NCBI GenBank assembly: GCA_029865265.1
Contig: JAOUHG010000004.1
Coordinates: forward strand, 89,835-153,834
Direction of reading: 5' to 3'
DNA from: Candidatus Krumholzibacteriia bacterium
GTDB taxonomy: Bacteria; Krumholzibacteriota; Krumholzibacteriia; WVZY01; JAKEHA01
DNA length: 64,000 nucleotides
Position 1 is the first letter of the stretch. Each line of letters begins with the position of its first letter. Of the stretch, positions 12,708-39,374 are shown piece by piece. Position numbers and translations under genes: made by a program. Below the pieces are notes generated by a model that had not been told where the DNA came from, made no database searches, and saw nothing but the letters and a program-made list of their open reading frames with translations.

Positions 12708-12709
12708 CC

Positions 12710-17038: not shown

Positions 17039-17048
17039 GAAACGCGGT

Positions 17049-17468
17049 ATGACCGTGCGCCCGGGCTGGCTGGTGGTGGCGGCGCTCGTCGCCGCGGGCT
17101 GCGCGTCGCTCGCGCCGCGCTCGCGCATCGCCGGGCCGGTGTCGGAAGGCGACGGGGTGCGCTTCGTGTACTTCGCGCCCACGGCGCACCGCGTGCAGCT
17201 GGCCGGCAGCTGGCCCGAGAACAACTGGGCCCGTGGGGACGGGTCGGTGGGGGAGGCCAACATCGGCCTGATGGCCGACGACGATGGCGACGGGATGTGG
17301 GAGATCACGGTGCCGCTGCCGGAGGGCCGGCACCAGTACCTGTTCTGGGTGGACGAGGCCACCTGGGCGCTCGACCCGGGCAACCCCGTACAGGTGGAGG
17401 CCGGACCGGCGGGGCGGGCCTCTGAGGTTGTTCTGGTGGCGCGAGGCGCCGAAATGGAGATCCGATGA
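17049..17468 (+). CDS. small lipoprotein with CBM48-like domain
   Basis: Lipobox LVAAGCAS. VRFVYFAPTAHRVQLAGSWPENNW...GRHQYLFWVDEATWALDPGNP. Confidence 0.65.
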   Translation: MTVRPGWLVVAALVAAGCASLAPRSRIAGPVSEGDGVRFVYFAPTAHRVQLAGSWPENNWARGDGSVGEANIGLMADDDGDGMWEITVPLPEGRHQYLFWVDEATWALDPGNPVQVEAGPAGRASEVVLVARGAEMEIR

Positions 17469-17836
17469 AATCCGGGGTGGTGTTTGCGATGTTCGTCCTG
17501 GTGTTGGCTGGTTGCGCCGGTCCCAAGCCGCCGCCGCGTACCGGCGGGCCGGAACTGGTGGGCGGCGGGGCGCTGTTCCGCTACCGAAACTCTGATGCCA
17601 AAAAGGTTTACCTCGTTGGGGACTTCAACGACTGGGCCCCCTCCACCGACCCCATGACCGACGAGAACGGTGACGGGGAATGGACCCTTTTCTACCCCCT
17701 GGGGCCGGGCCGCTACGCCTACAAGTTCGTGGTCGATGGCCGCTCCTGGATTGCCGACCCCACCAACCCGGAGACGGAGGCGGACGGCTTCGACGGCTGG
17801 AACTCGGTGCTGGTCATCCCCGAGCTGACCCCCTGA
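17465..17836 (+). CDS. small lipoprotein with CBM48/AMPK-GBD-like domain
   Basis: ATGA overlap with the previous gene. Lipobox VLVLAGCAG. KVYLVGDFNDWAP...GRYAYKFVVDGRSWIADPTNP. Confidence 0.7.
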   Translation: MKSGVVFAMFVLVLAGCAGPKPPPRTGGPELVGGGALFRYRNSDAKKVYLVGDFNDWAPSTDPMTDENGDGEWTLFYPLGPGRYAYKFVVDGRSWIADPTNPETEADGFDGWNSVLVIPELTP

Positions 17837-17928: not shown

Positions 17929-18108
17929 AGTAGTTAATCAACCCACAGCTCCAAGGGGCCGCCGCGGTGTGAGTTTGCCCGCCATGGTTGCCCAGGTGCC
18001 GGGCCTGCACGCGCGGGGCATGGGAGTTGCACGTTTGCCCTTAGGAACGTTCCGCCCCCACCCCGGTATTTGCAGATGCTCCCGTCCGTGAACAGGAATT
18101 TTGACGCA

Positions 18109-21100
18109 ATGAACCTCCCCCGCCTCCCGCGCGTCATCACGCTTGCGGCCACGCTGTCACTGGCGTGGGCGGGCGTGCCCGCGGCCGCACCGGGCAGCGG
18201 CACGGCGATTATATCTCCCACCACGATTGCCGCGGGTTCGAGCGGGACGTGGACGATCACCTATACCGCGACTGAGCCCTTCAAGGACGGCACGGTGCGG
18301 CTCACGATCCCGGCCGGATGGACGGCCCCGCAGAATGGGTCCCCCGTCAGTCCCGGCTACGTGTCCGTCTCCACCAACGAGCCAACCGGGAACCCGAGTT
18401 TGGCCCTCGGCGGCTCCCTCATAACGGTAACGGTCGACACGCTGACGGCGGCCAACACGATCACGATCACCTACGGTGTGGGTCCAACCGGCCTCGCACA
18501 GGCCGCCACCAACGACAGTACCTATACATTCGAAATCGCGTCGGACCCGGCGGGCACGGCGACGGCGCTGATTGCGACTTCGCCCACCGTGCAGGTGAAC
18601 CCTGCCGCGCCGGCCTATTTGACCGTTGCGCCCGACGACACCACGGTGACGGCGGGTGACTTCGCACACTACCGGCTCTTCGTCTTCGACACCTTCGGCA
18701 ATCGATCGCCGCTTCCCTCCAGTCGCACCGTCAACTTCTTCCCGACCCACGGGCAGTTCTATCTCACCGATGACGCAACGCCGATCGGCAGCGTGGTGAT
18801 TCCCGCGGCGCAGAGCTCGGTCGAGGTTCACTATCGCGCGACGCTTGCCACCACCGGCACCCCGCACCAGCTGGGGGCGCTGACCCTGACCGGATCGCCG
18901 CAGCTGGGCGGCTCGGCCGATGTCTCCGTGGTGGCGGGGCCGCTGAGCACGGGCAACTCGCTGATCTCGGCGACCACACCGGTGGTTGCCGACGGGATAT
19001 CGCAGAGTTCGGTGGAGGTGACCTCGCGCGACGCCTTCGGCAACCCGCGACAGGGGGATACGGTGACGCTGGGCGTCGACGGCAACGCGGATCCGACCGA
19101 CCCGGGCCCCACGACCGATGGTAACGGCAAAACGTCGGGTGTGGTGACGGACGAAACGGCCGAGACGGTCACGGTGTCGGCCTTCATCAACGCACAACTC
19201 ATCGCGGCGACCGCACCAATCGACTTCGTCGCCGGAGGTGTGAGCGGGGTCACCAGCACGGTGGACGCCACCACGCCGGTGGTTGCCAACGGGGTGGCGA
19301 CGAGTACGATCACGGTGACTGCACGCGATGCGCAGGGGAACCCGGTTTCCGGTCAGGTCGTGACGCTGGCCCTCCTGCCCACCGCCAACGCGGTGCTGAC
19401 GCAGCCGGGCGGCGTCACCAACGGGCTGGGCCAGGTGACGGGAACGCTCACCAGCACGGTGCCGGGGCCGCGCACGATCACGGCGGTGATTGGTGTGACA
19501 CCGCTGATTGACAACGCCGTCGTCAATTTCAACTCGGGGCCGCTGGCGAGCTTCCAGTGGACCGAAGTGGACGGAAATGCGGTGGCGGGGGTTGCGGAAA
19601 CGGTGCGGCTCACGGCGAAGGACGCGCTCGGGAACACGGTCACCGGTTACACCGGAACGGTGACACTGACGGCGTCCAGTGCGGGTTCGGGAACCGTTGC
19701 CTGGGCGTCGCTGGGCATCAACTCAACCGTACCCGCCGGGAACAACACCGCAACGTACACCTTCGCTCCGGGTGACAACGGGACCCTGCAACTCAGCGTT
19801 ACCGATACGCGCGCGGAGTCGATCCAGTTGACCGCGACGGATGGCGTTCCCACCGGCACGTCCGCGTCGATCCTCGTTGGCGCGGCCACAGCGGACAAGG
19901 TGGTGTTCGATGCGGGTAACAACCAGAGCGCCACGGTGAACACGTCGGTAGGAACCCCCCCGCGGGTCCTGGTGACCGACTTCTACAACAACCCGGTGGC
20001 GGGAGCGACGGTGACGTTCCGCGTGATCACAACCGTTACCGGCGTCGGGAGCGTCGATGTGACGGCGGGCGGCGGGGTGGATTCGACGGGGACGACGGAT
20101 GCAGGTGGCTATGTTGACTGCGATGTCTGGCGAATGGGGATCAACGCCGGGAACAACCGCCTGCGTGCGCTCATTTCGTCGGGCAGCGTACCAGGTTTCA
20201 CCTTCAACGCCACGGGCACGGCCGGAGCCGAGAACACGCTCAGCCTTTCTCCCCCCAGCCAGAGCGTCACGGTGGGGGCATTCCAGGTTGTCACGGCAAC
20301 GCTTACCGACGCGTTCGGCAATCCAAAGCCCAACACGCGCGTCGACATCGCGATCACCGCCGCCAACGGGGGCACGCTCGAGGCGGATCCAGGGCACACG
20401 ACGACCCAGCTCAGTCCGACGGCACGCTGGGGCAACACCGACGCGGCAGGCGTCACGACGGTTCGCTTCCGCGCGCCGTCAACCGCGGGCCTTCCCAATA
20501 CTGTCGATGCATCGACATCTGTTATCGGCCAGGGGAGTGTCGCCGATGTGGTGTACACATCGTCCGCCAGCGGTGCCACCAACCTACGCATCACGTTCCA
20601 GGGGGCGTCGACGGCCGCCGCGGGCACCTCCATCGAGTTTCTGGTGGAGGCAATCGATGGAAACCAGAACGTCGATGTCACCAACACGTCGCAGGTCAAT
20701 CTGACGCCCCAGGTTGGCAGTACGCTCGCCTTCAGCCTCGACGACCTCACATTTGAGACCACGCAGTTCAATCTGCAGAGCGGCGCGCGCACCATTTATG
20801 CGCGGGCGACGATGGCGGGGGATTGGAACATCACCGTCGATGGCAGCGGCCTGGGACCCGATACCAAACAGGTGTCGATTACCGACACGGGTGCCATCGA
20901 CCACTACGTCGTGACCACGGTGCCGTCGGTGGTGGCGGGTGTCACCTTCGACGTATCCGTGCAGGCGCGGGACGTCTACGACAACCTCGTGGTCGGTGCC
21001 AACAACGTCGTGAACCTCGTAGCCATCGACGATGTTACCACCAACCCTGCGCTCTCAACGCTGCTAGTCGCCCAGACCACGCTGTCCGGTGGCCTCGCCA

Positions 21101-24100
21101 CCCAGGCGGAGACTTACACCAGGGCTGAGTTGATGCGGGTGCGTGCGAGCGCTTCCGGCAAAGAGGGAATCAGCGGCGTTGTCAATGTGGCGGCTGCGCC
21201 GGCCTACCGCATCGCGAAGATCTCGGGCGACAATACAGGCGTCGCTGTTAGTGCCCCGCAGTTGCTCGAAGCGCAGGTGCTGGACGCGTTCGACAACCCG
21301 GTGGCCGGCCAGTCGGTGACCTTCGTGGTGATCGGTGGTGGGGGCAGCGTGTTGCCGGGAGCACCCAGCACTGGTGCGGCCGGCACCGCCCAGACCACAC
21401 TTACGACGGGGAGCACGCCGGGCAACAACCTGGTCAAGGCGACGATTCTCGATGAGAACCCGGCCAGCCTGGAGCGCGTCGACTATCTGGTGGAGACCGT
21501 GCCGGGCGGGGTTGCGTACTTCACGGTGGTGCCCGCCAAGTTCAATCCGATTGCGGGCGAGGCTGTCAATCTCACCGTGACCGCGTTTGATGCCGAGGAC
21601 AACGTTGTCTCGGACGACAACACCACCCAGATTCAACTCTCGTCGGGAAGTGGAACCGTCCAGTTCGGCGTGGCCACGGGCACGCTGGCGGCCGGGGTCT
21701 TCTCGACGACGGTAACGGACAACATCGCGGAGCAGTACACGGTGACGGCGGAGCTCTTCGGTGGCGGAGTGCCAACTGGGACAAGCGCGCCGGTTACCGT
21801 GGGGCATGCCCCGGCTTTTGCAGTCGTTTATGTGAGTGGTAACGCGAGCGGTGTTGCCGCCGGCTCGCAGCAGGTGCTGCAGGTGCGCGTGCGCGACGCG
21901 TATACCAACCCGGTGCCGGGTCAGCCGGTGACGTTCGCCGTGGCCAGCTCGCCGGGGGGCGCCACCATCACCGACGCGGTGGGCGATCCCAACGACGGCA
22001 TCACCACCACAAATGCCGCCGGTCTCGCGCAGGCCACGTTGAACACCTCGGCTGTTTCCGGCACGAACCAGGTCAATGCGCGCATTCTGGACGGGCTGCC
22101 GCCCGACCACCTCGTGCCGTTCACCGTGGACACGAGTCCCAATTCGGCTACGACGCTGCGCATCACCTTCCTCGGTCCCACGACGGTGGCGGCCGGGCAG
22201 ACGTCGTCGTTCAAGGTGGAGGCACTTGATGCCGGTCAGAACCTGGACACCTCGAACACCAGTCTGATCACGCTGACGCCGCAGACCGGGAGCAACCTCG
22301 ACTTCAGCCTGTCTGATTTCGCCGGGGGTCTCACCCAGTTCAATCTGGTGGGTGGCACGCGCACGATCTATGTGCAGGGGACGAAGACCGGCTCCTGGAA
22401 CATCACCGTGGATGACGGTCCGGGTGGCCTCGCGAGCGATACCAAGGGCATTACCGTCAACGACGCCGGCGTGGTGGACCACTACGTGGTCACGGCGCCG
22501 TCCAACGCCGTGGCGGGTGCCACCTGGAACGTTCTTGTCGAAGCGCGGGACGTGTACGACAACAAGGTGACGGGCGCCAGCAACCTGGTGAACCTCGCCG
22601 CGGTGCTCGCGTCGGACAGCACCAGTCTCGCCAGCTCCTCGCTGTCGGTGGGACAGGCAACCCTGACGGGCGGCTCGGTGGTCGTCAACGAGTTCTACAC
22701 ACGTGCGCAGGGAATCCGCGTGCGCGTGCGCGACGCGGGCAGCAAGGAGGGCTTCAGCGGGACGGTGCAGATCGGTGCGGCGATTGCCTACCAGGTGGTC
22801 AATGTCTCGGGCGACGGCATCGACATCGTGGCGGGCACCACTCGAACCCTGACAGGCAGAGTGGTCGACAGTTATAACAATCCCGTGCAGAACCAGACCG
22901 TGTCGTTCACCGCCGTGTCGGGTGGTGGTGACTTCGCCGGTGGCACTACGGCTCAAAGCGATATCAACGGCACGGTGGTCAAGGGCTTCAATACCGGGAA
23001 TGTCGTTGGCATCAACGTGGCCCGCGCGTCGATTCTGGACGGGAATCCCATCGGCGTGGAGACGACGGACTTCACCGTGAGCACCAAGGCGGGGGCGCTC
23101 GACAACTACGAAGTGGTACCGGTCGATCCGCTCAAGATCAATCTCGTCGCCAACGAAACCACCAGTGTGATCGCCCGCGCGCGCGACCAGTACAACAACT
23201 ACCGCATCCAGGACAATACCACCGTTGTGGGCCTGACAGCCACCGGGAGCGCCGTACTGGGTTCCGCGGGGGGAACCCTGGTGAACGGCGCGTTTACCAC
23301 CACGGTCCGCGACGATGTGGCGGAGACGTTCACCGTGACGGCTGAAACGGGCCTCGATTCGGGAACCAGCAACCCCTTCACGGTGTCGCCTGGCCCGCCG
23401 TACCGTATCGTCAAAGTCACGGCCGATCCGGTGAATGGACTGCCGGTCGGATTGCAGCAGCCTCTTGTGTCCGAGGTGCGCGATGAGTGGAACAACGCCG
23501 TCGGCGCGGGTGTCAGCGTCACCCATCTGATAGTTCAGGCGCCCGATCCAAGTGCCTATCTGCGTGACGCGGTGGGCGACACCACCGACGGCATTACCAC
23601 GACGGCGGCCAATGGGCGGGCGACGGCTCTACTGGGACCGGCCAACACGGCCGGTTTGAACCGCGTGTCGGCCACCATTCTCGATGGGAGCCCGTCGGGG
23701 CTCGAACGCGTGACGTACGACGTCAACACCGTGGCAGGTGGAATCGCGAAGTACCAGGTGACGATGGGCGCAACCAGCGCCACGGCGGGAACCGCGGTTT
23801 CGGTGAGTGTTCAGGCCCTCGATGCGAACGACAACCCGGTGGCCGACAACGGGACGCAGGTCGATCTGGCGGGGAATCCCGGCGCCGGGCTGATTTTCGC
23901 GGCAAACCCGCTTACGCTGAGTGGCGGCACGGCATCGACCACGGTGACGGCCAGCCTCGTGCAAACGTACGCCATTAAAGCGAGTTCGGTGCTGCAGCCC
24001 GCGGTGTCCGGCCAGGGTGCTTCCGTGGTCGTGTCGCCGGCCGCGCCCGCGGGCGTCATAACCGCCACGGCGACCGCGGACGTCATCACCGCCAACGGGA

Positions 24101-27100
24101 GCTCAGTAACGACACTCACCAGCAGCGTCATAAGGGATGCGTTCCTCAACCAGGTGCCGGCCGGCGGCGGGGTTACCGTGACGACGAGCGGTGGCGTGAT
24201 TCTGGGCACACAGCCCAAGATCATCGGCGCCAACGGACGCGTCTCCTTCGACCTGCGCTCGTCGACCACGCCCGGTCCGGTGACGGTTTCAATGACCAGC
24301 GTGGCCGGAACCGCGTTCGGGCAGAAGGTCATCCAGTTTGCGCAACCGGTGGCGTTCAACACCAGTCAGGGGCCGGTGCCGTCCATCGTGAAGCCCGGGG
24401 ACAATCTGCGCTTCCGCGTCGTCGTCGCCAACACCTCGAGCACGGCCGCCAACCTCACGACGGCCACCCGGTTTGCGTTTGCCGACGGCGTTCACACCTT
24501 CACTGCGTTCCTGGCGGCGCCGAAGACGGTCGCCGCCGCCGATACCGCGACGCTGGTGTTCAACAATACCACGCTGGACGCGGCGTTTGCGTCGGGCGCC
24601 TACACCCCGGTCGTCACGCTGATCGGAAACGACCAGTACGGTTCGGCGTTCAACGTCTCGAGCCCGCTGCCGCTCAATGCCGTGCAGGTTACAAGCATCG
24701 AGATCACGCTTATCAGCGCGCCTTCCCCGGTGAGCCGCGGCCAAACCCGCAACGTGAGCGTGAGCGTACGCAACAACGGCGCCACGCCGGCAAGTCTCAA
24801 CAACCTGACCCTGTCGTTCTCGCCCGGTGTGGGCGTGTACACGCCGGGAACGCCTTCCCCGGCGCTTCCCGTCCAGATCGCGGCGGGGAATACCGCGACG
24901 GTTGTCATTCCGGTCACCATTGAAACCGCCTCGGGCCTCGGCACCGATCAGATCGACGCGTTTGCCGAGGCCACGGTGGGCGGACAACCCGTCACCGACG
25001 ATTCGGCGGATCCGCATCCGTTGGGATCCTGGCAGATCGTTGCGCAGGCCAGCCTCGTGTATGCGCCGGGGTCGCTCACGCCGCCGGCGGCGTCGCGCGG
25101 CAAGTCCTACGGGTTCCAGATGGCGATTCAAAACACGGGCAGCGGCGTTGTCTCGTTGAGCCCCGCCCTTACCCGGCTTACCTTCACCGATGGCTCGCTC
25201 AATTTCTCAGCAGCGCCCGTGCAGGCTTACGCCATCCCCGGGGGCGCGACCCAGGTGCTGACTTTCGTCGACACGGCGATACCCGGCGGATTCGCCGCCG
25301 GGCCCGTCGACGTGGTTCTCGACGCGCAGGGCACGGACAATGGCGCCCCCTTCACCCAGTTGGTCTCGACAGCGGGCTCCGGCGACCAGTTGAACATCGT
25401 GACACCGGCGGTGCTCAGTGCCGTTGCGGGAACGTTGTCGCCGGTGCTCACGACACAGGGTGCCACGGCCACTTTCCAGGTTGCGGTCAACAACACGGGC
25501 GGGGCGACGGTGGACCTGTTCCCGGCGACGACGACGCTGTCCTTCACGGGATTCAACGCCAGCCTCGACCCGACCGGACCGACCTCAATCGGGCCGCTGG
25601 GAAACACGACGTTGCGCTTCATCGGCACTCCGGTCAGCGCGGGCAGCACGCCTCCGGGGAATTACTTCCCGCAGATCGACGTGGACGGCACCGAGAACGG
25701 GCTCGACTACGGTGCGTCGTTCGCGTCTCCCAGCAGCGTGAATGTCCAGGCGGCACCCGACATCCTGATTGCGGCCATCCTGCCCTCGCAGACCACCATC
25801 ACCACCGATCAGGCGCGGCGCATCCAGGTGCGCATGGTGGTGCAGAACAGTGGTGGTGCGACGGTCTCATTCACGTCGGCTTCGATCCGCATGTTCAGCG
25901 GTGCGGTTGAGCGCACCGCGCAGTTCGGTATCGCGCCCCCCTCCGCCTTCCAGGGTGGTGGCAACCTGGCGCCCGCGTCGGTGGACACACTGCTGTTCCA
26001 GGTGACCGACGTCGCCGGCCCCATGTCGGCCGGCCCGCTGACCATCGAGGGGCTGCTGAACGTGGAGGACACCGCCACCAGCCAGCCGATCACCACCAAC
26101 ACCAGCAACGGCGGCAAGGGCGCGCTCAGCGTGCAGACACCGGCCACGATCAACATCCTAGCGGTCACGCCCTCGTTGCCCACGGTGACCGCGGGAATGG
26201 ACCGGGATTTCACCATTCGCGCGCTGATCCGCAATGGCGGCCAGAGCGACGTGAATGTCAACGCCGCCGCGGCAACCCTGCAGTTCACCCCGCCGGGTGG
26301 CTGGGTGAGGACACCCCGCGCGACGCTCGGCAGCGGCAGCAACCTGCTGCAGGGCGGCGAGGTCGACACGCTCATCTTCGACGTGACCACCAGCGGCAGC
26401 GTGACCGGTATGGTCGGCATTGATGCCACCGTGGGTGGCACCGAGAGCAACAGCGCCCGCACGTTCAGCAACGCGTCGTCCGGTGCGGGCTCGATTGTGG
26501 TGCAGACGGCGGGGAACATCGTGGTCAGCGTCGTGTCGTCACGGGCGACCATTACCAGCGGCGCCAGCGTTCCCTGGACGCTCTCGGTGACGGTACAGAA
26601 CACGGGCGGGGCGGACGTCAATCTCGATCTCGGCGCCGCGGTTCTGGTGAGCTTCGGCGACGCCACAACCCCGCCGGTTCCGTCGGTTCCCCCGGTGCTG
26701 GCGGGTGGCGGAACGCTGCTTTCGGGGGGCGAGACCGATCAGTTTGTGATCGGCGTGCCGGTGGCGGGTGTCTATGGAACGCTCGGGCCGCAGAACATGC
26801 AGGTGCTCGTCACCGGGACCGAACTCAACTCGACTGTCGACAAGTTTGATAGTGATGCGGCGTCGGTCATCGTGCAGGCCGCGCCGGACGTCGCGTACAT
26901 ATCGCTCACGCCGTCGCCGGTCGCCAAGGGTGTTTCGGTGCCATTCGCTGTCACCGTTCGTAATCCGGTTGCGAACGGCGCCACACTCACGCTCGACCCT
27001 GTCACCACCCGTCTGCAGTTTGCGGGTGGCGCCTTCGACGCGGGGCTGGCGGGAGGGCCGGTGACGCTGGCGGCGCTCGAGCAGAAGACGCTGCTGTTCA

Positions 27101-30100
27101 ACAGCACGGTGGTGCCGGGCGGCATCCAGTCGGTGTCGCAGGACGACGCCGAGCTGATCTTGAATTGGACGGAGAACGGACGCTCCGGTTCCAACACGGT
27201 CGAGATCACCGACGGCGACATCGAGGTTCAGGAGGCGCCCGAACTGGGCATCGTGAGCCTGATTGCGAGCCGTGCCACCGTAACCGCCGGCCAGACATCC
27301 CCCACGTGGACCGTCGACATGGTGGTGCGCAACCTGGGCGGGCTCCCGGTGGACATCGATCTGGCCGCGGACTCCACCTACCTGGTCATGAATCTCCTGC
27401 AGGGAGGGCTGGATGTCTCCGACGAGTACACCATCGCCCAGCCCACCAAGCTCGAATCCGCGGGAGGCACGCTGCTCGGCCCGAGCCTCACCGACACGCT
27501 GCGGTTCACCGTTCAGCAGGCGGGCCTCACCGAGGGAATCGTGATCATCTCCGGGCTGGTCACCGGGCACGAGAACTCGACAGTGGTCATGGGTAACACC
27601 GACGCCGGCGGTACGGGCAGCTTCGAACTGCAGGCGCGGGGTGAGCTGGCAATCCGCAGCATCACGCCCGCCAGGACCACGGCGACAGTGGGGCAGACGT
27701 CGACCTACCGGATCCGCATGGCGGTGGAGAATACGGGTGGCGCGGCGATCGATCTCGATTTGACCAAGCCGAACACGGACCTCGGCTTCAGCAACTCCGG
27801 GTGGCTCACGACACTGGATGGGAATCTCGCCGGTGGCGGCGTGACGCTCTCCGGTGGAGAGGTCGATACGGTGACATTCACGGTTGATACCACCGGCGGG
27901 CCGGCCGGGGTGGTCACGATCAGTGGTGTCGTTGCCGGCGAGGAGACGAACACGGCCGCACCGAAGTTCGCTGACACCACGTCCGGCGGCACCGGGAGCA
28001 TCACGCTGCAGGGTGCGGCCGCGCTCAGCATCATTAATGTTGCGGGGTCGCGGGCGAGCATCACCGAAAACACCGGCGTGCCGTGGACGATCGACGTGGA
28101 TGTTCGGAATACCGGCGGCGCGATCGCACAGCTCAACCTGCCCGGCGGTGTCTCGGCCAGCGTGCAGGACGGGGCAGTTTCCTTTGCGCCCGTGGTCACC
28201 CTGCAGGGCGGTGGCAGCTCGCTCGCGCCGGGACAAACGGGCAGGCTTGTCTTCCAGGCCACGGCGAACGGCGCGTTCACCAGCTACGGCGCCAAGATCA
28301 TCACCATCGATGTGAACGGTTCCGACACCAACAGCGGCGACCCGCTCAACGCCGCCAGTAACTCGGCGAGCATCCTGGTGCAGAAGGCACCGGTCCTGCA
28401 ACTGGCCGGGTTCGACCCGTTCACGGTGACAAGCGGGGCCAACGCCCGCTTCAATGTGCGTGTTTCCAACCCGGATGCGGACGCCGCCACGGTTACGTTC
28501 GACCGCGGCAACACGCGCGTCCATTTCGCCGCGGGGGCCTACAGCGCGTTCCTCGACCTGAACAGCCCGGTGGCCATACCCGGCGGGGAAGACACCACCC
28601 TCGTCTTCGAAGACAAGACCGTGGTCTCGTCCATCCCGCTGGGCAAGTACGACTTCAACGCCAACCTGGCTTACAGCGCCAACGGGGTTCCGGTCACGTT
28701 TGCACCCTCACTGCTGGATACGCTCAGCGTGCAGGCGGCACCAACGCTTTCCATCGACCAGATCGAGGCCTCGCGGACAACGGTGACGGCCGGGCAGCAG
28801 GCGGACTGGACCGTCACCATGACGCTCCGCAACAGCGGCACGCAGCCGATAACGCTCGATCTCGCGCCGGCGGCCACGTACCTCACATTTGTTGCACCGG
28901 GCGCGCAGGTGGATGGTGGCTATCTGGTTATCCCCCCGCCGGGACTCCAGAACGCCGGCGGCGTGGTGCTTGGCGCCGGCCTCACGGACGTCCTGCTGTT
29001 CACCATCGACCAGACCGGCAGTCTCACCGGGCCGGTGACCATCAACGGACGCGTGCGCGGGCTGGTGGGCGGCGTCACCGAAGTCCTCGACGACACGTTC
29101 GACGGCGGCCGCGGGAATGTCAACGTGCAGAGCGCCGCGGCGGCGGCGATCACCGCCATTCGCGCCACCCAGCCCCGGGTGACCGCCGGGCAGTCGGCGG
29201 TCTGGGGCATCCGCGTGATCCTTGCCAACTCCGGTAGTTCCGCCGTGGACCTGGACTTCCCGGGGCTGGCCATTACCTTCGATGGCGCCGATCCTCCCAC
29301 CGCGGGCTGGGGCGTGACCCCGCCGACCGCACTCCTCTCAGGCGGCTCTACGCTTGCGGGTGGTTCGGTGGACAGCCTGGTGTTCACGGTGGAAGTCACC
29401 GGCCCCGCAGGTACGCCGGCGGTCGGCGTGGAGATTCCATACATAGAGGTGAACACGCAGCAGGCGGACACGCTCCTTTCCGGGGGCTACCAGCCCGTGG
29501 TTGTCGAGACGCCGCCGTCGTTGCACATCCTTACCACCAACCTCCTCGCACCCAACGCGCCCAACGTGAATGTCGGGCAGGGCTACAGTGTGGCGGTGAA
29601 CGTGGAAAACAGCGGCGGTGCGGCAGCGCGCGACGTGCAGCTCGAAGTGGAGTCGGGCAACGGCTGGAGCACCATCACCGGTGTGGCGCCCATCCCACTG
29701 GTGGGCGGGGCCGGCCAGACGGTGCTGGTGCCGATACCGGCCACGGCGGATACTGCCGGCCTGGATCTCCTGACCGCACGGATCGTTTCGGCGCTGGATG
29801 ACAACTCGGGCGAAGCGGCACCCGTCGTGATCGATGGTGATACCACCGAGGCGGTCAATGTGCAGACACCGGCGCAGCTCACCGTCGTCCTTGTGAGCAC
29901 GTCGCAGGCCTCGGTTACGCAGGGCCAGTCGAACCCGTGGAATGTGATCGTCACCGTGGAGAACGGCGGCGGCGCGGACCTCGATCTCACGGCGCCCACC
30001 AATGACGACCTGGTTTTCCGCCGTGGCGCGATTCAGAACGACTACTCGGTGGTCCCGCCGACGGCATTCGCCTCCGGCAACCCGGCCTGGCGCCTCGCCG

Positions 30101-32532
30101 GCGGCGCGAGGGACTCGCTCGTCTATGAGGTCGTGTCGACCGGCGCGCAGGTTGGCCTGGTCGACATCACCGCTCCGGTGGCGGGGACGGACCGCAACCA
30201 GCCCGCCAACAAACCGGCCGCGAGCGGTACCGCGCAGGTGACGGTGCAGCCCGCGGCCGGGCTGTCGATCCTCTCGACCGCGACCGTGGGGACCGTCAAC
30301 CACGCGACCGCCAACCGCGACACGGTCAACACGAACTTTGCATACGAGATTCACGTGACCGTGCAGAATCTGGGCGAGGCGGTGGACAGCGTGCTGGTCA
30401 ACCTGAGCACCGACCTGGCGTTGAATATGTCGGATATCCAGGCGGCGAGTTCCATCCGTCAGCAGATCGACGCCGATTCGCTGAAGACGTTCGTGTTTAA
30501 TGTCACCTCGCCGAGTGTGTCGACGCCGCTCGAGACCTTCACCGCCACCATCGCAGCGGGTGTGGTATCGCGCAACTCCGGCCAGCCGGTGACGCCCCAG
30601 CCGCCCATCGATGCGACACAGGTGGTGGTGGCGCAGCGGCCGGCGAACCTGGTGACGACCCTGGCCATCACGTCGCCGCCGACGGCCGTTGGCGGTACCG
30701 TGAGCCCCGGCCAGCAGTTCCAGGTGACGGCGCGGGTCAACAACACCGGCCAGGCGCTGGTCGGCGGCGCCGCCGAAGTCGAGTTGACGCTCCCGACCGG
30801 GTTCACGACGACCGACAACACGACACGCCCGTTTGTCGCCAACCAGCCGGTGGTGTGGAGCATCACGGCACCCGGTGCGGAACAGCCGGCCGACACGTTC
30901 CTGTGCGCGATCACGACGCGGCCGATCGATGTGAATACGGGGCAGGTGGCGTCCGCGTCCGTCCCGAGCTCTGTTCTCCTGGTGACCGTCGGCAGCGGCG
31001 GCGGCATGACGTCGCCGACGGTGAGCATCATCGGCCCCACCGGGGCAATCGATGGCACCATCAGCGCCGGGCAAACATTCACCGTGGACGCGTCGGTGGT
31101 TGCGACGCTGGACACGGAGAATATCGTGGCGACGATTGCGTACCCACCGGGCTTCTCCGTGTCGGGCAGCCCGGACCGCGCCATGGGCAACGGAACCGGC
31201 GCCGCGGTTTCCATCAACCCCAAGTACACCGTCACCGCGCCGGCAGTACCCGGCGGCGCGGATATCTATGTCACCTTCGTTGGCACGGACGCAAACTCGG
31301 GCGATCCGGTGTCCGCGGTTGACACCCTCCGGGTGACCGTGGTGCCGGTTGCGTCGCTCTCCGTCAGCGCGGGCATCACCGGCCCGCCCGAGGCCACCGA
31401 TGGAAGCGTGGGGGTGTCGACGCCATTCGTGGTCGAAGCGACGGTGGACAGCCTTGCGGGTACCGCCGGCGTCAGCGGACTCGCGACCATCAGCATCACG
31501 CCGCCCGCCGGCTACACCCTCGACGCGGGAAGCGCCATCGAAAACTTCACCGTCGGTGTGCCCGTGCAGTGGACCTTGCGCTCGCCAGCGATACGCACGC
31601 CGACGCCCGGTCAGATCCAGTTCCGCATCGAGACCATCCCGGTGGACGAGAACAGCGGCCAGACCGCGCAGGTGACCGCGCGCACGGCATCCATCGCCAT
31701 TCTCACCGAAGGCGCCACCGTGGCCGTCACCGAGGTCTCAAGCGGCCTTGGCCTCAACGACGGGCCCGTGCCCGGGGGAACCGCCGGCATCAGCCTGCTC
31801 GGCCTGCGCATGGCGTACAACGCCTCCGACGCCAACGCGCCCGACGCGGCCATCGACAACATCGCCGTTACCGTGTTGGACAAGAACGGCCAGCCTCTGG
31901 GCAACAGCACCCTCGCGCAGACCCTCAAACGTCTCACCGTCGACCTTGGCGCGCAAACCTACGAGGTCGTCGATCCGTCCGCGAACCCCGTCATGGTGGA
32001 TCTCACCGGCGGCGGCATCGACCGCATCATATTGCCGGACAGTTTCGTCACCGCCGTGGTCGGCGTCGACCTCGATGCGTCGCCGAAGGTAACCGAGTTC
32101 AGCGTGGGCATCCGCAACGGCGGCGTCACCGTGCGCGACACCGGCTCGGGCCAGAACCTCAGCATCACCGATGGCAACGGCAATGCGCTCGACGGGCAGA
32201 TTACGTCGGATCCCTTGATCGTGCTCTCCTCGAGCTTCGAGGAGTACGTGCACAACTATCCCAACCCGTTCCGGGCCGGGACACAGTCGACCAGGATCAC
32301 CTACCTACTCGACCAGCCCAGCGACGTGACCATCAAGGTCTACTCGATGACCGGCGAGCTGGTGTGGGAGGAGAGCATCTCTCGCAGCGATCCGGGCGGA
32401 CAAGCCGGCGCGCAGGAGGCCGAGTGGGACGGCCGCAACGGCAGCGGGGAAGTCGTGCGCAACGGTGTCTACGTGTGCGTGCTCAACGCCGGATCCAGGT
32501 CGGCGAAGTTCAGAATCGCGGTGGCCAAGTGA
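18109..32532 (+). CDS. giant (about 4,808 aa) repeat-rich surface protein: Ig-like repeats, CARDB-like repeats, T9SS type-A CTD
   Basis: Uninterrupted 14.4-kb ORF. ATG 18109 gives signal peptide MNLPRLPRVITLAATLSLAWAG (TTG 18070 and ATG 18076 are alternatives). At least 14 repeats of the type V.ARDA.GNPV.GQ.VTF, then about 20 repeats of the type V.N.GGA.V.LDL.... C-terminus NYPNPFRAGTQSTRITYLL...TIKVYSMTGELVWEE...VRNGVYVCVLNAGSRSAKFRIAVAK. Confidence 0.85.
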   Translation: MNLPRLPRVITLAATLSLAWAGVPAAAPGSGTAIISPTTIAAGSSGTWTITYTATEPFKDGTVRLTIPAGWTAPQNGSPVSPGYVSVSTNEPTGNPSLALGGSLITVTVDTLTAANTITITYGVGPTGLAQAATNDSTYTFEIASDPAGTATALIATSPTVQVNPAAPAYLTVAPDDTTVTAGDFAHYRLFVFDTFGNRSPLPSSRTVNFFPTHGQFYLTDDATPIGSVVIPAAQSSVEVHYRATLATTGTPHQLGALTLTGSPQLGGSADVSVVAGPLSTGNSLISATTPVVADGISQSSVEVTSRDAFGNPRQGDTVTLGVDGNADPTDPGPTTDGNGKTSGVVTDETAETVTVSAFINAQLIAATAPIDFVAGGVSGVTSTVDATTPVVANGVATSTITVTARDAQGNPVSGQVVTLALLPTANAVLTQPGGVTNGLGQVTGTLTSTVPGPRTITAVIGVTPLIDNAVVNFNSGPLASFQWTEVDGNAVAGVAETVRLTAKDALGNTVTGYTGTVTLTASSAGSGTVAWASLGINSTVPAGNNTATYTFAPGDNGTLQLSVTDTRAESIQLTATDGVPTGTSASILVGAATADKVVFDAGNNQSATVNTSVGTPPRVLVTDFYNNPVAGATVTFRVITTVTGVGSVDVTAGGGVDSTGTTDAGGYVDCDVWRMGINAGNNRLRALISSGSVPGFTFNATGTAGAENTLSLSPPSQSVTVGAFQVVTATLTDAFGNPKPNTRVDIAITAANGGTLEADPGHTTTQLSPTARWGNTDAAGVTTVRFRAPSTAGLPNTVDASTSVIGQGSVADVVYTSSASGATNLRITFQGASTAAAGTSIEFLVEAIDGNQNVDVTNTSQVNLTPQVGSTLAFSLDDLTFETTQFNLQSGARTIYARATMAGDWNITVDGSGLGPDTKQVSITDTGAIDHYVVTTVPSVVAGVTFDVSVQARDVYDNLVVGANNVVNLVAIDDVTTNPALSTLLVAQTTLSGGLATQAETYTRAELMRVRASASGKEGISGVVNVAAAPAYRIAKISGDNTGVAVSAPQLLEAQVLDAFDNPVAGQSVTFVVIGGGGSVLPGAPSTGAAGTAQTTLTTGSTPGNNLVKATILDENPASLERVDYLVETVPGGVAYFTVVPAKFNPIAGEAVNLTVTAFDAEDNVVSDDNTTQIQLSSGSGTVQFGVATGTLAAGVFSTTVTDNIAEQYTVTAELFGGGVPTGTSAPVTVGHAPAFAVVYVSGNASGVAAGSQQVLQVRVRDAYTNPVPGQPVTFAVASSPGGATITDAVGDPNDGITTTNAAGLAQATLNTSAVSGTNQVNARILDGLPPDHLVPFTVDTSPNSATTLRITFLGPTTVAAGQTSSFKVEALDAGQNLDTSNTSLITLTPQTGSNLDFSLSDFAGGLTQFNLVGGTRTIYVQGTKTGSWNITVDDGPGGLASDTKGITVNDAGVVDHYVVTAPSNAVAGATWNVLVEARDVYDNKVTGASNLVNLAAVLASDSTSLASSSLSVGQATLTGGSVVVNEFYTRAQGIRVRVRDAGSKEGFSGTVQIGAAIAYQVVNVSGDGIDIVAGTTRTLTGRVVDSYNNPVQNQTVSFTAVSGGGDFAGGTTAQSDINGTVVKGFNTGNVVGINVARASILDGNPIGVETTDFTVSTKAGALDNYEVVPVDPLKINLVANETTSVIARARDQYNNYRIQDNTTVVGLTATGSAVLGSAGGTLVNGAFTTTVRDDVAETFTVTAETGLDSGTSNPFTVSPGPPYRIVKVTADPVNGLPVGLQQPLVSEVRDEWNNAVGAGVSVTHLIVQAPDPSAYLRDAVGDTTDGITTTAANGRATALLGPANTAGLNRVSATILDGSPSGLERVTYDVNTVAGGIAKYQVTMGATSATAGTAVSVSVQALDANDNPVADNGTQVDLAGNPGAGLIFAANPLTLSGGTASTTVTASLVQTYAIKASSVLQPAVSGQGASVVVSPAAPAGVITATATADVITANGSSVTTLTSSVIRDAFLNQVPAGGGVTVTTSGGVILGTQPKIIGANGRVSFDLRSSTTPGPVTVSMTSVAGTAFGQKVIQFAQPVAFNTSQGPVPSIVKPGDNLRFRVVVANTSSTAANLTTATRFAFADGVHTFTAFLAAPKTVAAADTATLVFNNTTLDAAFASGAYTPVVTLIGNDQYGSAFNVSSPLPLNAVQVTSIEITLISAPSPVSRGQTRNVSVSVRNNGATPASLNNLTLSFSPGVGVYTPGTPSPALPVQIAAGNTATVVIPVTIETASGLGTDQIDAFAEATVGGQPVTDDSADPHPLGSWQIVAQASLVYAPGSLTPPAASRGKSYGFQMAIQNTGSGVVSLSPALTRLTFTDGSLNFSAAPVQAYAIPGGATQVLTFVDTAIPGGFAAGPVDVVLDAQGTDNGAPFTQLVSTAGSGDQLNIVTPAVLSAVAGTLSPVLTTQGATATFQVAVNNTGGATVDLFPATTTLSFTGFNASLDPTGPTSIGPLGNTTLRFIGTPVSAGSTPPGNYFPQIDVDGTENGLDYGASFASPSSVNVQAAPDILIAAILPSQTTITTDQARRIQVRMVVQNSGGATVSFTSASIRMFSGAVERTAQFGIAPPSAFQGGGNLAPASVDTLLFQVTDVAGPMSAGPLTIEGLLNVEDTATSQPITTNTSNGGKGALSVQTPATINILAVTPSLPTVTAGMDRDFTIRALIRNGGQSDVNVNAAAATLQFTPPGGWVRTPRATLGSGSNLLQGGEVDTLIFDVTTSGSVTGMVGIDATVGGTESNSARTFSNASSGAGSIVVQTAGNIVVSVVSSRATITSGASVPWTLSVTVQNTGGADVNLDLGAAVLVSFGDATTPPVPSVPPVLAGGGTLLSGGETDQFVIGVPVAGVYGTLGPQNMQVLVTGTELNSTVDKFDSDAASVIVQAAPDVAYISLTPSPVAKGVSVPFAVTVRNPVANGATLTLDPVTTRLQFAGGAFDAGLAGGPVTLAALEQKTLLFNSTVVPGGIQSVSQDDAELILNWTENGRSGSNTVEITDGDIEVQEAPELGIVSLIASRATVTAGQTSPTWTVDMVVRNLGGLPVDIDLAADSTYLVMNLLQGGLDVSDEYTIAQPTKLESAGGTLLGPSLTDTLRFTVQQAGLTEGIVIISGLVTGHENSTVVMGNTDAGGTGSFELQARGELAIRSITPARTTATVGQTSTYRIRMAVENTGGAAIDLDLTKPNTDLGFSNSGWLTTLDGNLAGGGVTLSGGEVDTVTFTVDTTGGPAGVVTISGVVAGEETNTAAPKFADTTSGGTGSITLQGAAALSIINVAGSRASITENTGVPWTIDVDVRNTGGAIAQLNLPGGVSASVQDGAVSFAPVVTLQGGGSSLAPGQTGRLVFQATANGAFTSYGAKIITIDVNGSDTNSGDPLNAASNSASILVQKAPVLQLAGFDPFTVTSGANARFNVRVSNPDADAATVTFDRGNTRVHFAAGAYSAFLDLNSPVAIPGGEDTTLVFEDKTVVSSIPLGKYDFNANLAYSANGVPVTFAPSLLDTLSVQAAPTLSIDQIEASRTTVTAGQQADWTVTMTLRNSGTQPITLDLAPAATYLTFVAPGAQVDGGYLVIPPPGLQNAGGVVLGAGLTDVLLFTIDQTGSLTGPVTINGRVRGLVGGVTEVLDDTFDGGRGNVNVQSAAAAAITAIRATQPRVTAGQSAVWGIRVILANSGSSAVDLDFPGLAITFDGADPPTAGWGVTPPTALLSGGSTLAGGSVDSLVFTVEVTGPAGTPAVGVEIPYIEVNTQQADTLLSGGYQPVVVETPPSLHILTTNLLAPNAPNVNVGQGYSVAVNVENSGGAAARDVQLEVESGNGWSTITGVAPIPLVGGAGQTVLVPIPATADTAGLDLLTARIVSALDDNSGEAAPVVIDGDTTEAVNVQTPAQLTVVLVSTSQASVTQGQSNPWNVIVTVENGGGADLDLTAPTNDDLVFRRGAIQNDYSVVPPTAFASGNPAWRLAGGARDSLVYEVVSTGAQVGLVDITAPVAGTDRNQPANKPAASGTAQVTVQPAAGLSILSTATVGTVNHATANRDTVNTNFAYEIHVTVQNLGEAVDSVLVNLSTDLALNMSDIQAASSIRQQIDADSLKTFVFNVTSPSVSTPLETFTATIAAGVVSRNSGQPVTPQPPIDATQVVVAQRPANLVTTLAITSPPTAVGGTVSPGQQFQVTARVNNTGQALVGGAAEVELTLPTGFTTTDNTTRPFVANQPVVWSITAPGAEQPADTFLCAITTRPIDVNTGQVASASVPSSVLLVTVGSGGGMTSPTVSIIGPTGAIDGTISAGQTFTVDASVVATLDTENIVATIAYPPGFSVSGSPDRAMGNGTGAAVSINPKYTVTAPAVPGGADIYVTFVGTDANSGDPVSAVDTLRVTVVPVASLSVSAGITGPPEATDGSVGVSTPFVVEATVDSLAGTAGVSGLATISITPPAGYTLDAGSAIENFTVGVPVQWTLRSPAIRTPTPGQIQFRIETIPVDENSGQTAQVTARTASIAILTEGATVAVTEVSSGLGLNDGPVPGGTAGISLLGLRMAYNASDANAPDAAIDNIAVTVLDKNGQPLGNSTLAQTLKRLTVDLGAQTYEVVDPSANPVMVDLTGGGIDRIILPDSFVTAVVGVDLDASPKVTEFSVGIRNGGVTVRDTGSGQNLSITDGNGNALDGQITSDPLIVLSSSFEEYVHNYPNPFRAGTQSTRITYLLDQPSDVTIKVYSMTGELVWEESISRSDPGGQAGAQEAEWDGRNGSGEVVRNGVYVCVLNAGSRSAKFRIAVAK
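18970..24220 (+). repeat. array of divergent bacterial Ig-like (Big/invasin-type) domain repeats within the giant gene (protein-level periodicity about 100 aa)
   Basis: Recurring V(T/Q)(A/S)RDA(F/Q/Y)(G/D)NPV.G(Q/D).VT(F/L) motifs at roughly 300-nt spacing. Approximate boundaries. Confidence 0.5.
24340..30700 (+). repeat. array of CARDB/DUF11-like domain repeats within the giant gene (about 110-130 aa period)
   Basis: Recurring V(R/Q/E)N(T/S/G)GGA.V(D/N)L(D/N)L and ...L.F(T/S)... motifs. Approximate boundaries. Confidence 0.45.
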
Positions 32533-34415
32533 TGAAACCCGTGACGCGCATACTCTGTGTGGTGACAATGGCCTGCCTGTGCATCCCGGGGACGGCACGT
32601 GCCCAGGACGCCGGCACCCAGAGCATCTTCTCGCTCGGCGCCGGCTCGCGCGGCATCGGGCTGGGCAACGCGTTCGTCTCGCTCGCCGACGACGCCAGCG
32701 CGGTGTACTGGAACCCCGCCGCGCTCAAGAACGCCGGCTCCATGCAGTTCATGGCCATGTACATGCCGCTCTACGGCGACTTCACCGGCGCCGACTACAC
32801 GTACTTTGGCTTCGTCTACCCGACGCTGTCGGCGGGCGCCTTCGGCGTGGGCTACACGCGCGTGGGAACCACCTTCGATTCCTACGACGAGCAGAGCCGC
32901 CCGCTGGGTGAGGGCAACTACTCGGAGAGCCAGCTGCTGTTCTCCTACGCCTTCGAGCGCCACTCGGGCTGGTTCCTGGGCTCGCTGGCCATGGGCGCGA
33001 GCTTCAAGATCAACCGCCAGATCGTGGATCCGTACTCGAGCACCGCGCCCGGCGTCGACGTGGGCTTGCGCTGGATTCCCGACGCGGCCAAGTCGCTCTC
33101 CATCGGTGTGAACCTGCAGGACGTGGTGGGCGCGCAGTACAAGCTGGATCTCAACGAGGACACGGTCTACCGCACCATCCTCATGGGCGCGGGCTGGACC
33201 CGGAACTTCGACAACGGGTCCGCGCTGCGCCTGATGTTGCAGTACGACATGCCCGAGGTGGCCGATGCGCGCTTCCACGCGGGCGCGGAGTACGCGTTCT
33301 CCAAATTCATCGCGTTGCGCGCCGGTTACGACAAGGACGTGGTCACCTTCGGCCTGGGTGTGGGCGCGTTCAACTACGGGCTGGACTACTCGTTCTACTC
33401 GCGCGACGAGGCCGGCTCCAACCAGGGCGTCACCTTCACCGCCCGTCTTGGCAAGTCGCTTGCAGAGCAGCGCGCGGAAATCGCCGAGCAACAGGCCCGG
33501 GAGGAGAGCGAACTCATCCGGCGCACCTTCGAGGCGCGGGTGGCGGCGCACAAGAAGACGGCGCGCGAGCTGGAGGCGCAGGGGGACTGGTCCGGGGCGC
33601 TGGGCGAATGGCGCATCGTGCTGGAGTACGTCCCCGACGACCAGGATGCCATCGAGGCGGCGGATGCGGCTCGAGCCCAGGTGGTGGCGCAACAGGCGGC
33701 CGCGGTGCGCGACGTCGAGACGCAGGCCGCCATTCGCACCCGCTTCGCGCGCGGGCTGGACCTGTTCAACCAGGACGATCTGCTGGGCGCGCGCGGCGAG
33801 TGGCTCGCCGTCCTGCAGATCGACCCGGGCAACCAGGGCGCGCAGGACTACCTGGCGCAGACCAATACCAAGATCAACGTGGCGGTTGGTTCACACATCG
33901 CCAACGCACACGCGCTCGAGTCGCAGAACCGCCTCACCGAGGCCATCGCGGAGTGGAACAACGTGCAGCAGTACGACCCGCAGAACGCCGAGGCGAGTGC
34001 CGCCATCGCGCGCATCCGCACGCGCATCGAGTCGGTCAGCCAGGACTACGCCACCTCGCAGCGCCGGCTGCGCATCGTGACGCTGTACAACGACGCCCTG
34101 CAGGATTACAACGCGGGGAATTACCAGGTGGCCATGACCAAGCTCAACGAACTCCTGCTCCTGCAACCCAACCACGAGGACGCGAAGAAACTGCAGGCGC
34201 TCACCAAGCGCCGCATCACGCCGTTGACCGACCAGGAGAAGTCGCGCGTGCGCGAACTCTACCTGGCCGGCATGCAGCACTTCTCACGGGACGAGTACGC
34301 CCAGGCCATCACCGAGTGGCAGAAGATCCTGGAGATTGATCCCACCAACGAGAGCGTTCAGCGCAGTATCGACGAGGCCCGCGAGCGTCTGCGCAAAGTC
34401 CAGGAACGGAAGTAA
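32532..34415 (+). CDS. PorV-like outer-membrane beta-barrel fused to C-terminal TPR-like domain
   Basis: ATG 32532 shares one nt with the giant gene's TGA (32530-32532). Signal peptide ILCVVTMACLCIPGTARAQ. IFSLGAGSRGIGLGNAFVSLADDASAVYWNPAALKNAG is the PorV/FadL-type signature. About 300 aa of barrel, then about 320 aa of TPR-like helical repeats (EWRIVLEYVPDDQDA..., GEWLAVLQIDPGNQGAQDYLA..., AITEWQKILEIDPTNESVQ). Confidence 0.75.
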   Translation: MKPVTRILCVVTMACLCIPGTARAQDAGTQSIFSLGAGSRGIGLGNAFVSLADDASAVYWNPAALKNAGSMQFMAMYMPLYGDFTGADYTYFGFVYPTLSAGAFGVGYTRVGTTFDSYDEQSRPLGEGNYSESQLLFSYAFERHSGWFLGSLAMGASFKINRQIVDPYSSTAPGVDVGLRWIPDAAKSLSIGVNLQDVVGAQYKLDLNEDTVYRTILMGAGWTRNFDNGSALRLMLQYDMPEVADARFHAGAEYAFSKFIALRAGYDKDVVTFGLGVGAFNYGLDYSFYSRDEAGSNQGVTFTARLGKSLAEQRAEIAEQQAREESELIRRTFEARVAAHKKTARELEAQGDWSGALGEWRIVLEYVPDDQDAIEAADAARAQVVAQQAAAVRDVETQAAIRTRFARGLDLFNQDDLLGARGEWLAVLQIDPGNQGAQDYLAQTNTKINVAVGSHIANAHALESQNRLTEAIAEWNNVQQYDPQNAEASAAIARIRTRIESVSQDYATSQRRLRIVTLYNDALQDYNAGNYQVAMTKLNELLLLQPNHEDAKKLQALTKRRITPLTDQEKSRVRELYLAGMQHFSRDEYAQAITEWQKILEIDPTNESVQRSIDEARERLRKVQERK

Positions 34416-34416
34416 C

Positions 34417-38640: not shown

Positions 38641-39374
38641 GGAAGCTGGCGATCATCACCTCCAAGGGCGGGACCGGCAAGACCACCACCGCCATCAATC
38701 TGGGGCACGGTCTTGCGCTGTGCGGCAAAAAAGTGCTGATCGTCGATTGCGATCCGCAGCGCAACGTGGCCATCGCCTTTGACGTGCGGGCGGGCAAGAC
38801 CCTGTGCAACCTGCTGCAACACGGCGAGGTGGAAGTAATCGAGGTGCGCAAGAACCTCTACGTGATCGATTCGGGTGGGCGCGAGCTGGCCGAGATCGAG
38901 ATGCTGCTGGCCTCGCAGTCGAGCCGCGACCGCCGGCTGGATCTGGCGCTCAAGAATTTGCGCGGGTGCGACGTCGTCATATGTGACTGTTCGCCCACGG
39001 TGAATCTGATCAACATCAACGCCATCGTCTTCGCCGACGAGGTGATCATTCCCGTGAGCATGGATTATCTGGCGCAGGCGGGAGCCCGTCAAACTATGCA
39101 GATTATCGATGAGATTAACGAGCACTCGGTGCGCAAGACGTCGATCATGGGCATCCTGCCCACTTTCTACGACTCGCGCACACGGCTCTCGGCCGACGTG
39201 CTCGGTTCGTTGCGGGAGCGTTTCGAGGAGAAGGTGTTCAAGAGCGTGATTCGCACCAATACGTCGTTGCGCGAGGCGCCGAGTTTTAACCAGACCATTT
39301 TCGAGTACTCGCCCATGTCGCGCGGTGCGTTCGACTACTATCAGTTGACCGAGGAAGTGCTGACCCGTGTCTGA
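38637..39374 (+). CDS. ParA/MinD-family P-loop ATPase
   Basis: ATGA overlap with the previous gene. Deviant Walker A KGGTGKTTTAINLG. DCDPQ motif. About 245 aa. Confidence 0.85.
   Translation: MRKLAIITSKGGTGKTTTAINLGHGLALCGKKVLIVDCDPQRNVAIAFDVRAGKTLCNLLQHGEVEVIEVRKNLYVIDSGGRELAEIEMLLASQSSRDRRLDLALKNLRGCDVVICDCSPTVNLININAIVFADEVIIPVSMDYLAQAGARQTMQIIDEINEHSVRKTSIMGILPTFYDSRTRLSADVLGSLRERFEEKVFKSVIRTNTSLREAPSFNQTIFEYSPMSRGAFDYYQLTEEVLTRV

Follow-up and report, generated by a model that had tools for sequence, protein, structure and literature searches.

A giant two-array protein with a type A sorting tail and a PorV/PorQ-like neighbour in Krumholzibacteria: a probable surface fibre

Invasin and intimin belong to the inverse autotransporters: their barrel is N-terminal, and the lectin-like tip lies at the C-terminus. 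In a survey of fibrillar adhesin-like proteins (Monzon et al. 2021), Big_1 appeared as a stalk domain and Por_Secre_tail as an anchor (PMC8286594). For type IX secretion systems (T9SS), the PorV shuttle recognises type A tails; genetic linkage between cargo and shuttle belongs to type B substrates with PorP/SprF-like partners, and type A substrates are served by the general PorV (PMC12618676). The present analysis concerns a giant gene in a stretch of 64,000 nucleotides (the window) on contig JAOUHG010000004.1, which had been described in an earlier note. The host is a Candidatus Krumholzibacteria bacterium of the FCB superphylum. The gene product consists largely of two arrays of repeats, the first of them immunoglobulin (Ig)-like, ends in a T9SS type A sorting domain, and is encoded directly upstream of a PorV/PorQ-like barrel. 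It is probably a T9SS-exported surface fibre, anchored at its C-terminus, of the fibrillar adhesin type.

Self-comparison of the giant protein resolved separate repeat blocks (Table 1). The first array, in which the earlier note had counted at least 14 Ig-like repeats, was found to hold 18 units of approximately 100-115 amino acids (aa), each with a D-x-x-x-N motif (aa 194, 308, 407 ... 2010). The Pfam scan that the note had suggested identified Big_1 (PF02369) in this N-terminal array, with 103.2 bits against a cut-off of 34.9 over seven stretches, and Invasin_D3 scored 78 bits on the protein in the same kind of scan. The signature proposed for these units, V.ARDA.GNPV.GQ.VTF, is a fair consensus, although a near-literal regular expression of it fits none of them. 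The second array, referred to here as regime 2, is made up of back-to-back units of about 122 aa each, with 20-38% pairwise identity and the motif V.V.NtGGa.v.L. Three units of a sister type follow, and the approximately 20 second-regime repeats claimed previously were thus recovered as 17 plus three. In profile-profile comparison with hhalign, the three sister units matched one another at 99-100% and were homologous to the 17 regime-2 units at 80-91% probability, whereas no relationship to the Big_1 units was detectable. The pre-tail domain had no family match, and a profile search of Protein Data Bank (PDB) sequences with it was empty. Domain scans of the giant protein found no known adhesive domain.

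Table 1. Features of the giant gene and of the surrounding cluster (window coordinates).
Feature	Position	Strand	Remarks
Giant gene	18109..32532	+	4,807 aa, 483 kDa; NCBI MDH4336317.1, "Ig-like domain-containing protein"
Signal-peptide-like leader (MNLPRLPRVITLAATLSLAWAGVPAAA)	18109..18189	+	aa 1-27; read from sequence
Unique N-terminal domain	18190..18648	+	aa 28-180; predicted beta-sandwich, presumed distal tip
18 Big_1-type Ig-like units	18646..24363	+	aa 180-2085; hidden Markov model (HMM) built from the protein itself, and motif spacing
17 tandem regime-2 units	24373..30651	+	aa 2089-4181; self-built HMM
Three sister-type units, ~120 aa	30661..31743	+	aa 4185-4305, 4305-4425, 4425-4545
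Conserved pre-tail domain, 172 aa	31741..32256	+	aa 4545-4716; directly before the tail
C-terminal sorting domain, NYPNPF...KFRIAVAK	32257..32529	+	aa 4717-4807; T9SS type A
PorV/PorQ-like barrel (aa ~30-300) with C-terminal TPR	32532..34415	+	627 aa
Secreted protein	11604-12707	+	weak tail of the giant-protein type
Second PorV-like barrel	~12710-13591	+	293 aa; starts 2 nt after the secreted protein gene
Outer-membrane protein (OMP)-like protein	~13578-15053	+	ends ...RGDF
Signal peptide, CBM48 and large C-terminal part	15053-17038	+	661 aa
Two small CBM48 lipoproteins	~17046-17468 and 17465-17836	+	
Partner-switching protein	first downstream gene of 34336..41659	+	1,434 aa; HATPase_c_2, HAMP, SpoIIE, helix-turn-helix (HTH), 3 STAS
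ParA-like ATPase	38637-39374	+	
TPR protein	39647-40819	+	
Small protein resembling the STAS part of the regulator	41267-41659	+	

The C-terminus reads NYPNPFRAG...KFRIAVAK followed by the stop codon, in agreement with the earlier note, and its assignment to the T9SS type A sorting domains held: the NCBIfam model TIGR04183 matched aa 4717-4804 with 24.9 bits against a cut-off of 23. Pfam FlgD_ig also matched the tail (34.4 bits, cut-off 27). Searches for a type B tail gave no TIGR04131 match at E ≤ 0.1, and CHU_C reached E 0.052 with 14.1 bits against a cut-off of 27. Of 151 sequences with regime-2 repeats (150 listed relatives and the window protein), 90 terminate in this kind of tail, with a phmmer count of 89 of 150. 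An HMM built from 66 orthologous tails matched the C-termini of two other proteins encoded in the window, at 4639-5958 (E 1e-12) and at 45283-46983 (E 3e-7; named "lamin tail domain-containing protein" by NCBI), and gave a weak match to the protein encoded at 11604-12707. These matches indicate that the organism uses the sorting signal on several proteins. To judge from its sequence, the giant protein would be exported by T9SS, and its tail would be cleaved.

The start of the downstream gene overlaps the stop codon of the giant gene by 1 nt (TGATG), as read in the sequence. The N-terminal part of its product, hereafter PorV-TPR, scored 89.3 bits against the NCBIfam model PorV_fam (NF033709; cut-off 90, E 3e-25), and the equivalog models PorQ, PorV2, and PorV matched more weakly, all far below their cut-offs. 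In a PDB search with a profile of 32 PorV-TPR homologues, the sole non-TPR match was the PorV subunit in the SprA complex (6h3i_F, E 0.004), and an orthologue (P0201) bears the NCBI name "PorV/PorQ family protein". The homologues form a tight family of 610-670 aa with 52-97% identity, and their source organisms, where named, are all Krumholzibacteria or Latescibacteria. In 12 of the 13 related loci with upstream sequence, the PorV-TPR gene directly follows an orthologue of the giant gene. A further small secreted protein, with a weak tail match only, is likewise encoded just before the second PorV-like barrel of the cluster. Gene order alone suggests cargo-dedicated PorV-like partners. In the sole exception (L012, CAZPUV010000011.1), the PorV-TPR gene occurs without a giant gene before it, and a 100-N gap lies about 4.4 kb upstream; this exception could be a scaffolding artefact or real. 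The TPR extension would face the periplasm, if the number of barrel strands is even, as usual.

A giant repetitive T9SS cargo gene followed by the gene of its cognate barrel is also the arrangement of SprB-SprF and of type B substrates (PMC12618676, PMC9143113). The giant protein might then be a mobile motility adhesin like Flavobacterium SprB, secreted by T9SS, held by the barrel of the downstream gene, and transported over the cell surface; genes for a DUF4388 protein and a ParA-like protein in the conserved neighbourhood would fit such a function. However, the tail is of type A, with the negative or sub-threshold type B searches given above, and the partner resembles the PorV/PorQ rather than the PorP/SprF family. 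Furthermore, the window showed no gld genes, and motility is not known in this uncultured class. A motility adhesin is thus judged very unlikely.

In the mechanism proposed for the anchored surface fibre, the signal peptide would bring the precursor of 483 kDa to the periplasm by way of Sec, and the last 90 residues, which comprise the type A domain, would route it through T9SS. At the cell surface, the tail would engage a PorV-family shuttle, most likely the translationally coupled PorV/PorQ barrel-TPR protein, and the C-terminal end would keep the giant protein at the outer membrane. The 18 Big_1 and 20 CARDB-like beads would form a stalk of perhaps 150 nm (about 40 domains of about 4 nm each, our own estimate), presenting the N-terminal beta-sandwich at the distal tip, where it may make contact with a surface, a particle, or a cell. 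We infer the adhesive function, the anchoring, the length of the fibre, and the role of the next gene as a partner; the adhesin or S-layer-like role that had been suggested for the protein is likewise to be understood as putative. Several observations weigh against this proposal. Both key HMM scores, TIGR04183 for the tail and PorV_fam for the neighbour, lie within 2 bits of their cut-offs, the former passing by only 1.9 bits and the latter falling 0.7 bits short of the NCBI value. No core T9SS gene (SprA/Sov, PorU, GldKLMN) was found within the 64-kb window, which holds only the two PorV/PorQ-like genes and the other tail-bearing proteins, and no report of a T9SS in Krumholzibacteriota was found in the library searched. 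No known adhesive domain is related to the tip domain, whose matches to BslA and YcnI are weak.

The second-regime repeats had been described in the earlier note as CARDB/DUF11-like. Pfam CARDB (PF07705) had no match on the whole giant protein at E ≤ 0.1. When the 17 regime-2 units were scanned singly, two matched CARDB (best E 0.024) and two matched NPCBM_assoc, and a single unit matched DUF11 (PF01345) at E 0.053, which does not reach the threshold. From the 17 units, AlphaFold gave a confident, all-beta model (predicted local distance difference test score, pLDDT, 89), and Foldseek returned only generic Ig-like sandwiches for it, with template modelling (TM) scores of at most 0.52. Among PDB sequences, the regime-2 profile matched DUF4352 (8q30) with E 9e-4; for 3idu and 2kl6, both CARDB structures, E was only 0.19-0.56. 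A homologue search with a 500-aa regime-2 query yielded only two word-sharing matches. The profile search found 960 cluster representatives among 1.84 billion proteins, 258 of them at E ≤ 1e-30, and most of the relatives listed are 2,000-6,000 aa long with 10-40 units.

The relationship to CARDB was traced through two proteins, P0006 and P0014, which scored 144 and 96 bits, respectively, with Pfam CARDB over their whole length. The regime-2 profile matched the unit at aa 3246-3359 of P0006 (37 bits) and that at aa 2720-2831 of P0014 (21 bits), and these are the units with the best Pfam CARDB scores. Since they satisfy both the regime-2 profile and CARDB, a transitive homology of regime 2 to CARDB is indicated. 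Regime 2 thus appears to be a remote relative of CARDB without a direct family assignment; the earlier description stands in this remote sense, but not as a direct CARDB or DUF11 match above threshold. P0006 and P0014 have 24-30 units that are true CARDB, followed at the C-terminus by NHL repeats, and have no T9SS tail. By their sequences, they represent a different family of giant proteins that uses the same kind of bead. The regime-2 repeat is not recognised by Pfam in the family of the giant protein, and would merit a family model of its own.

An open reading frame (ORF) scan of the window found a single open frame (18070..32532, plus strand) without internal stop, in keeping with the 4.8-kaa protein of the note. 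The guanine-plus-cytosine (GC) content by codon position is 0.84 at the third, 0.62 at the first, and 0.54 at the second position; with this strong third-position signal, the frame is clearly coding. The ATG at 18109 is the NCBI start of the identical protein MDH4336317.1 (Candidatus Krumholzibacteria bacterium), and the giant protein is thus already deposited at NCBI under a generic name. Some annotations begin 11 codons further upstream, which gives 4,818 aa. By inspection, the n-region of the leader is basic, and a hydrophobic core and an AAA site are present as well; the leader would be an N-terminal Sec signal peptide. A PGSG motif directly after these 27 residues opens the conserved mature domain in the orthologue alignment, and the mature part is acidic (isoelectric point 4.2) with three Cys residues. 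Antisense ORFs within the gene (up to 820 aa) were rejected as high-GC artefacts, the codon signal and all homology lying in the sense frame. The sequence upstream of the gene was searched for riboswitches and structured leaders, with no Rfam match at E ≤ 1 and a fold z-score of +0.5, and promoter and terminator scans returned site numbers no higher than in shuffled sequence.

Repeat-rich genes are prone to collapse in assembly, and the orthologues L001 and L014 are frameshifted in low-coverage or long-read metagenome-assembled genomes, as would be expected if the giant gene were an assembly artefact or a decaying pseudogene. Against this stand the open frame with its strong codon signal and the divergence of the repeats at the DNA level. 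No long identical direct repeats were found, as the earlier note had observed; the longest repeat spans 83 nt at 77% identity, and Tandem Repeats Finder returned three trivial rows only. The members of the 90% cluster of the giant protein, which are at least 90% identical, lie on contigs of 23 to 163 kb. At least four separate assemblies have the full gene with a uniform length (4,807 or 4,818 aa, according to which start is used), one further member is a partial copy of 4,434 aa, and full-length orthologues exist. Because several separate contigs carry the gene at one length, an assembly artefact is disfavoured, and this explanation can be regarded as effectively refuted.

The orthologue P0009 is exactly 4,807 aa long and 50% identical to the giant protein, and for 33 of 34 units the best match between the two lies at the co-linear position. 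Within the giant protein, the Ig array contains a duplicated block of five units (aa 827-1350 and 1351-1880, up to 56% protein identity), and the regime-2 array has a block duplication with a period of four units. Both five-unit Ig blocks map onto one block of the more distant P0004, which places the duplication after the split from P0004 and before the split from P0009. Ten full-length orthologues share a common domain order: N-terminal domain, Ig units (3-18), repeats (10-17), sister repeats (2-4), pre-tail domain, and tail. The claim of an old, stably maintained array was thus borne out, and comparison of these sequences suggests that the arrays are old, and stable over moderate distances but plastic over long ones. 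A recent repeat expansion or an assembly collapse was ruled out by the diverged DNA repeats, the co-linearity with P0009, and the presence of the gene in several assemblies.

A strain-level relative, P0003, is 91% identical to the giant protein overall. Identity falls to 66-76% over Ig units 3-8 (aa 501-1100, window 19609-21408), with flanks at 97-100%, and a second dip, to 79%, occurs at aa 4101-4200. The mosaic points to recombination, or to diversifying selection, in one part of the stalk.

The constancy of the protein could also be that of a structural coat or sheath, an S-layer-like core component of the envelope, of constrained size and assembled with the neighbouring OMPs. The giant gene is syntenic in at least 18 species of the class within a conserved cluster of envelope genes, and an orthologue of 50% identity has kept the length of 4,807 aa and is co-linear unit for unit, which is unusual for fast-evolving adhesins. 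However, no SLH or other S-layer domain was found in the giant protein (SLAP_DUP reached just 15.9 bits against a cut-off of 28.5), and the numbers of units differ widely at larger distances, as noted above for the Ig units and repeats. In addition, about 40 beads strung in a line match the architecture of a fibrillar adhesin stalk (PMC8286594). A coat or sheath is thus considered unlikely.

In the proposed surface fibre, contact would be made by the N-terminal domain, in which an IPxGWxxPQ motif is invariant in an alignment with seven orthologues. An AlphaFold2 model of the domain is a confident beta-sandwich (pLDDT 92.5), and the best Foldseek matches are YcnI and BslA/YweA (TM 0.54-0.66, E ~3e-4). 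The Pfam BslA match is partial, with 21.8 bits against a cut-off of 38.7 and coverage of profile positions 3-45 of 121; no Pfam family scored above threshold, and a profile search found no sequence relative in the PDB. Sequence and predicted fold may point to the same BslA-type family, a weak lead only. Two distant loci, L053 and L054 (~9990-12030), carry three tandem copies of a relative of this domain and no upstream CBM48 genes, which indicates that the tip domain occurs in other protein contexts too.

The giant and PorV-TPR genes belong to a conserved cluster of roughly 30 kb, which also includes OMPs, CBM48 lipoproteins, and a partner-switching regulator. The order of the six upstream genes (11604..17836) is kept in the distant loci L020, L021, L024, L025, L026, and L038. 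Three of the four upstream genes whose NCBI names were checked are called "hypothetical protein", and the fourth, as well as one CBM48 lipoprotein, has a domain name only. A 194-aa DUF4388 protein (11023-11607; Pfam 116 bits) is encoded just before the upstream genes. On the other side, the partner-switching protein combines an RsbW-like kinase, HAMP, a PP2C phosphatase, HTH, and three STAS domains, and the small STAS-like protein has an adjacent paralogous copy in related loci. The four downstream genes are kept at 57-90% identity in related loci, compared with 45-50% for the giant gene. A 397-aa ORF just past them (41678-42871) has a weak match to IS1-family transposases (41 bits, cut-off 100), and the cluster may end here in the source genome. 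It is proposed, tentatively and as a possibility less probable than the fibre itself, that the giant fibre and the PorV/PorQ-barrel-TPR protein constitute a dedicated cargo-shuttle or anchor pair for a type A tail, at the centre of a class-wide envelope module of about 30 kb that builds and regulates a surface organelle specific to Krumholzibacteria and Latescibacteria; the second secreted protein with its PorV-like barrel, the OMP-like proteins, the CBM48 lipoproteins, the partner-switching regulator, and the ParA-like ATPase would be further parts of the module.

Three conserved upstream genes bear CBM48 or AMPK1_CBM domains, and many type A cargos elsewhere in bacteria are released enzymes (PMC10202324). 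Both points would suit a scaffold that is released or binds polymers, serves polysaccharide use together with the three CBM48 neighbours, and is not anchored to the cell. In contrast, Pfam and NCBIfam scans found no catalytic or carbohydrate-active domain in the giant protein, and there is no room for an enzyme domain, because beta-sandwich modules cover it entirely. The CBM48-like modules sit in lipoproteins and in an OMP-like protein; they resemble an Ig module of the T9SS plug protein, and glycan binding is therefore not required. A released scaffold is as improbable as the motility adhesin, and the anchored fibre remains the preferred explanation.

To our knowledge, no member of Krumholzibacteria, or of the related organisms named Latescibacteria, has been cultured. 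Literature searches on Krumholzibacteriota or Latescibacteria with T9SS or adhesins found nothing relevant, and the library searched yielded no paper on secretion systems or surface structures of Krumholzibacteria and their Latescibacteria relatives. The giant protein is probably the largest surface protein of these organisms, and a giant gene conserved across the class offers a handle on how soil and sediment Krumholzibacteria contact their surroundings. If functional, a type A cargo with its own PorV-like barrel would extend specialised T9SS shuttles beyond type B and beyond Bacteroidota. The interest lies mostly in the PorV-like partner, the only lead of moderate novelty, and in the cluster with its conserved gene order, and to a small extent in the giant protein itself.

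The model of the N-terminal domain superposes best on BslA/YweA, the surface-layer hydrophobin of Bacillus biofilms, and on YcnI, although the Pfam match is partial and below the cut-off. The regime-2 array resembles the CARDB arrays of giant bacterial and archaeal surface proteins in its beta-sandwich units of about 110-120 aa and its V.V.N.G motif, whereas its own units fall under the CARDB threshold. As in invasin and intimin, tandem Big_1 Ig domains would form a rigid rod, but the polarity is reversed, and export would be directed by a C-terminal T9SS signal. With the fibrillar adhesins surveyed by Monzon et al., the giant protein shares a repeated stalk, a non-repeated end domain distal to the anchor, and a C-terminal T9SS anchor; it differs from them in an end domain that belongs to no known adhesive family, in a stalk half made of repeats of a type that goes unrecognised by Pfam, and in a host from Krumholzibacteria rather than Bacteroidota (PMC8286594). 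Finally, a giant repetitive cargo gene is followed by a barrel gene, as for SprB and SprF of Flavobacterium johnsoniae (PMC12618676, PMC9143113), but in Krumholzibacteria the tail is of type A, and the barrel resembles the PorV/PorQ family and carries a C-terminal TPR extension.

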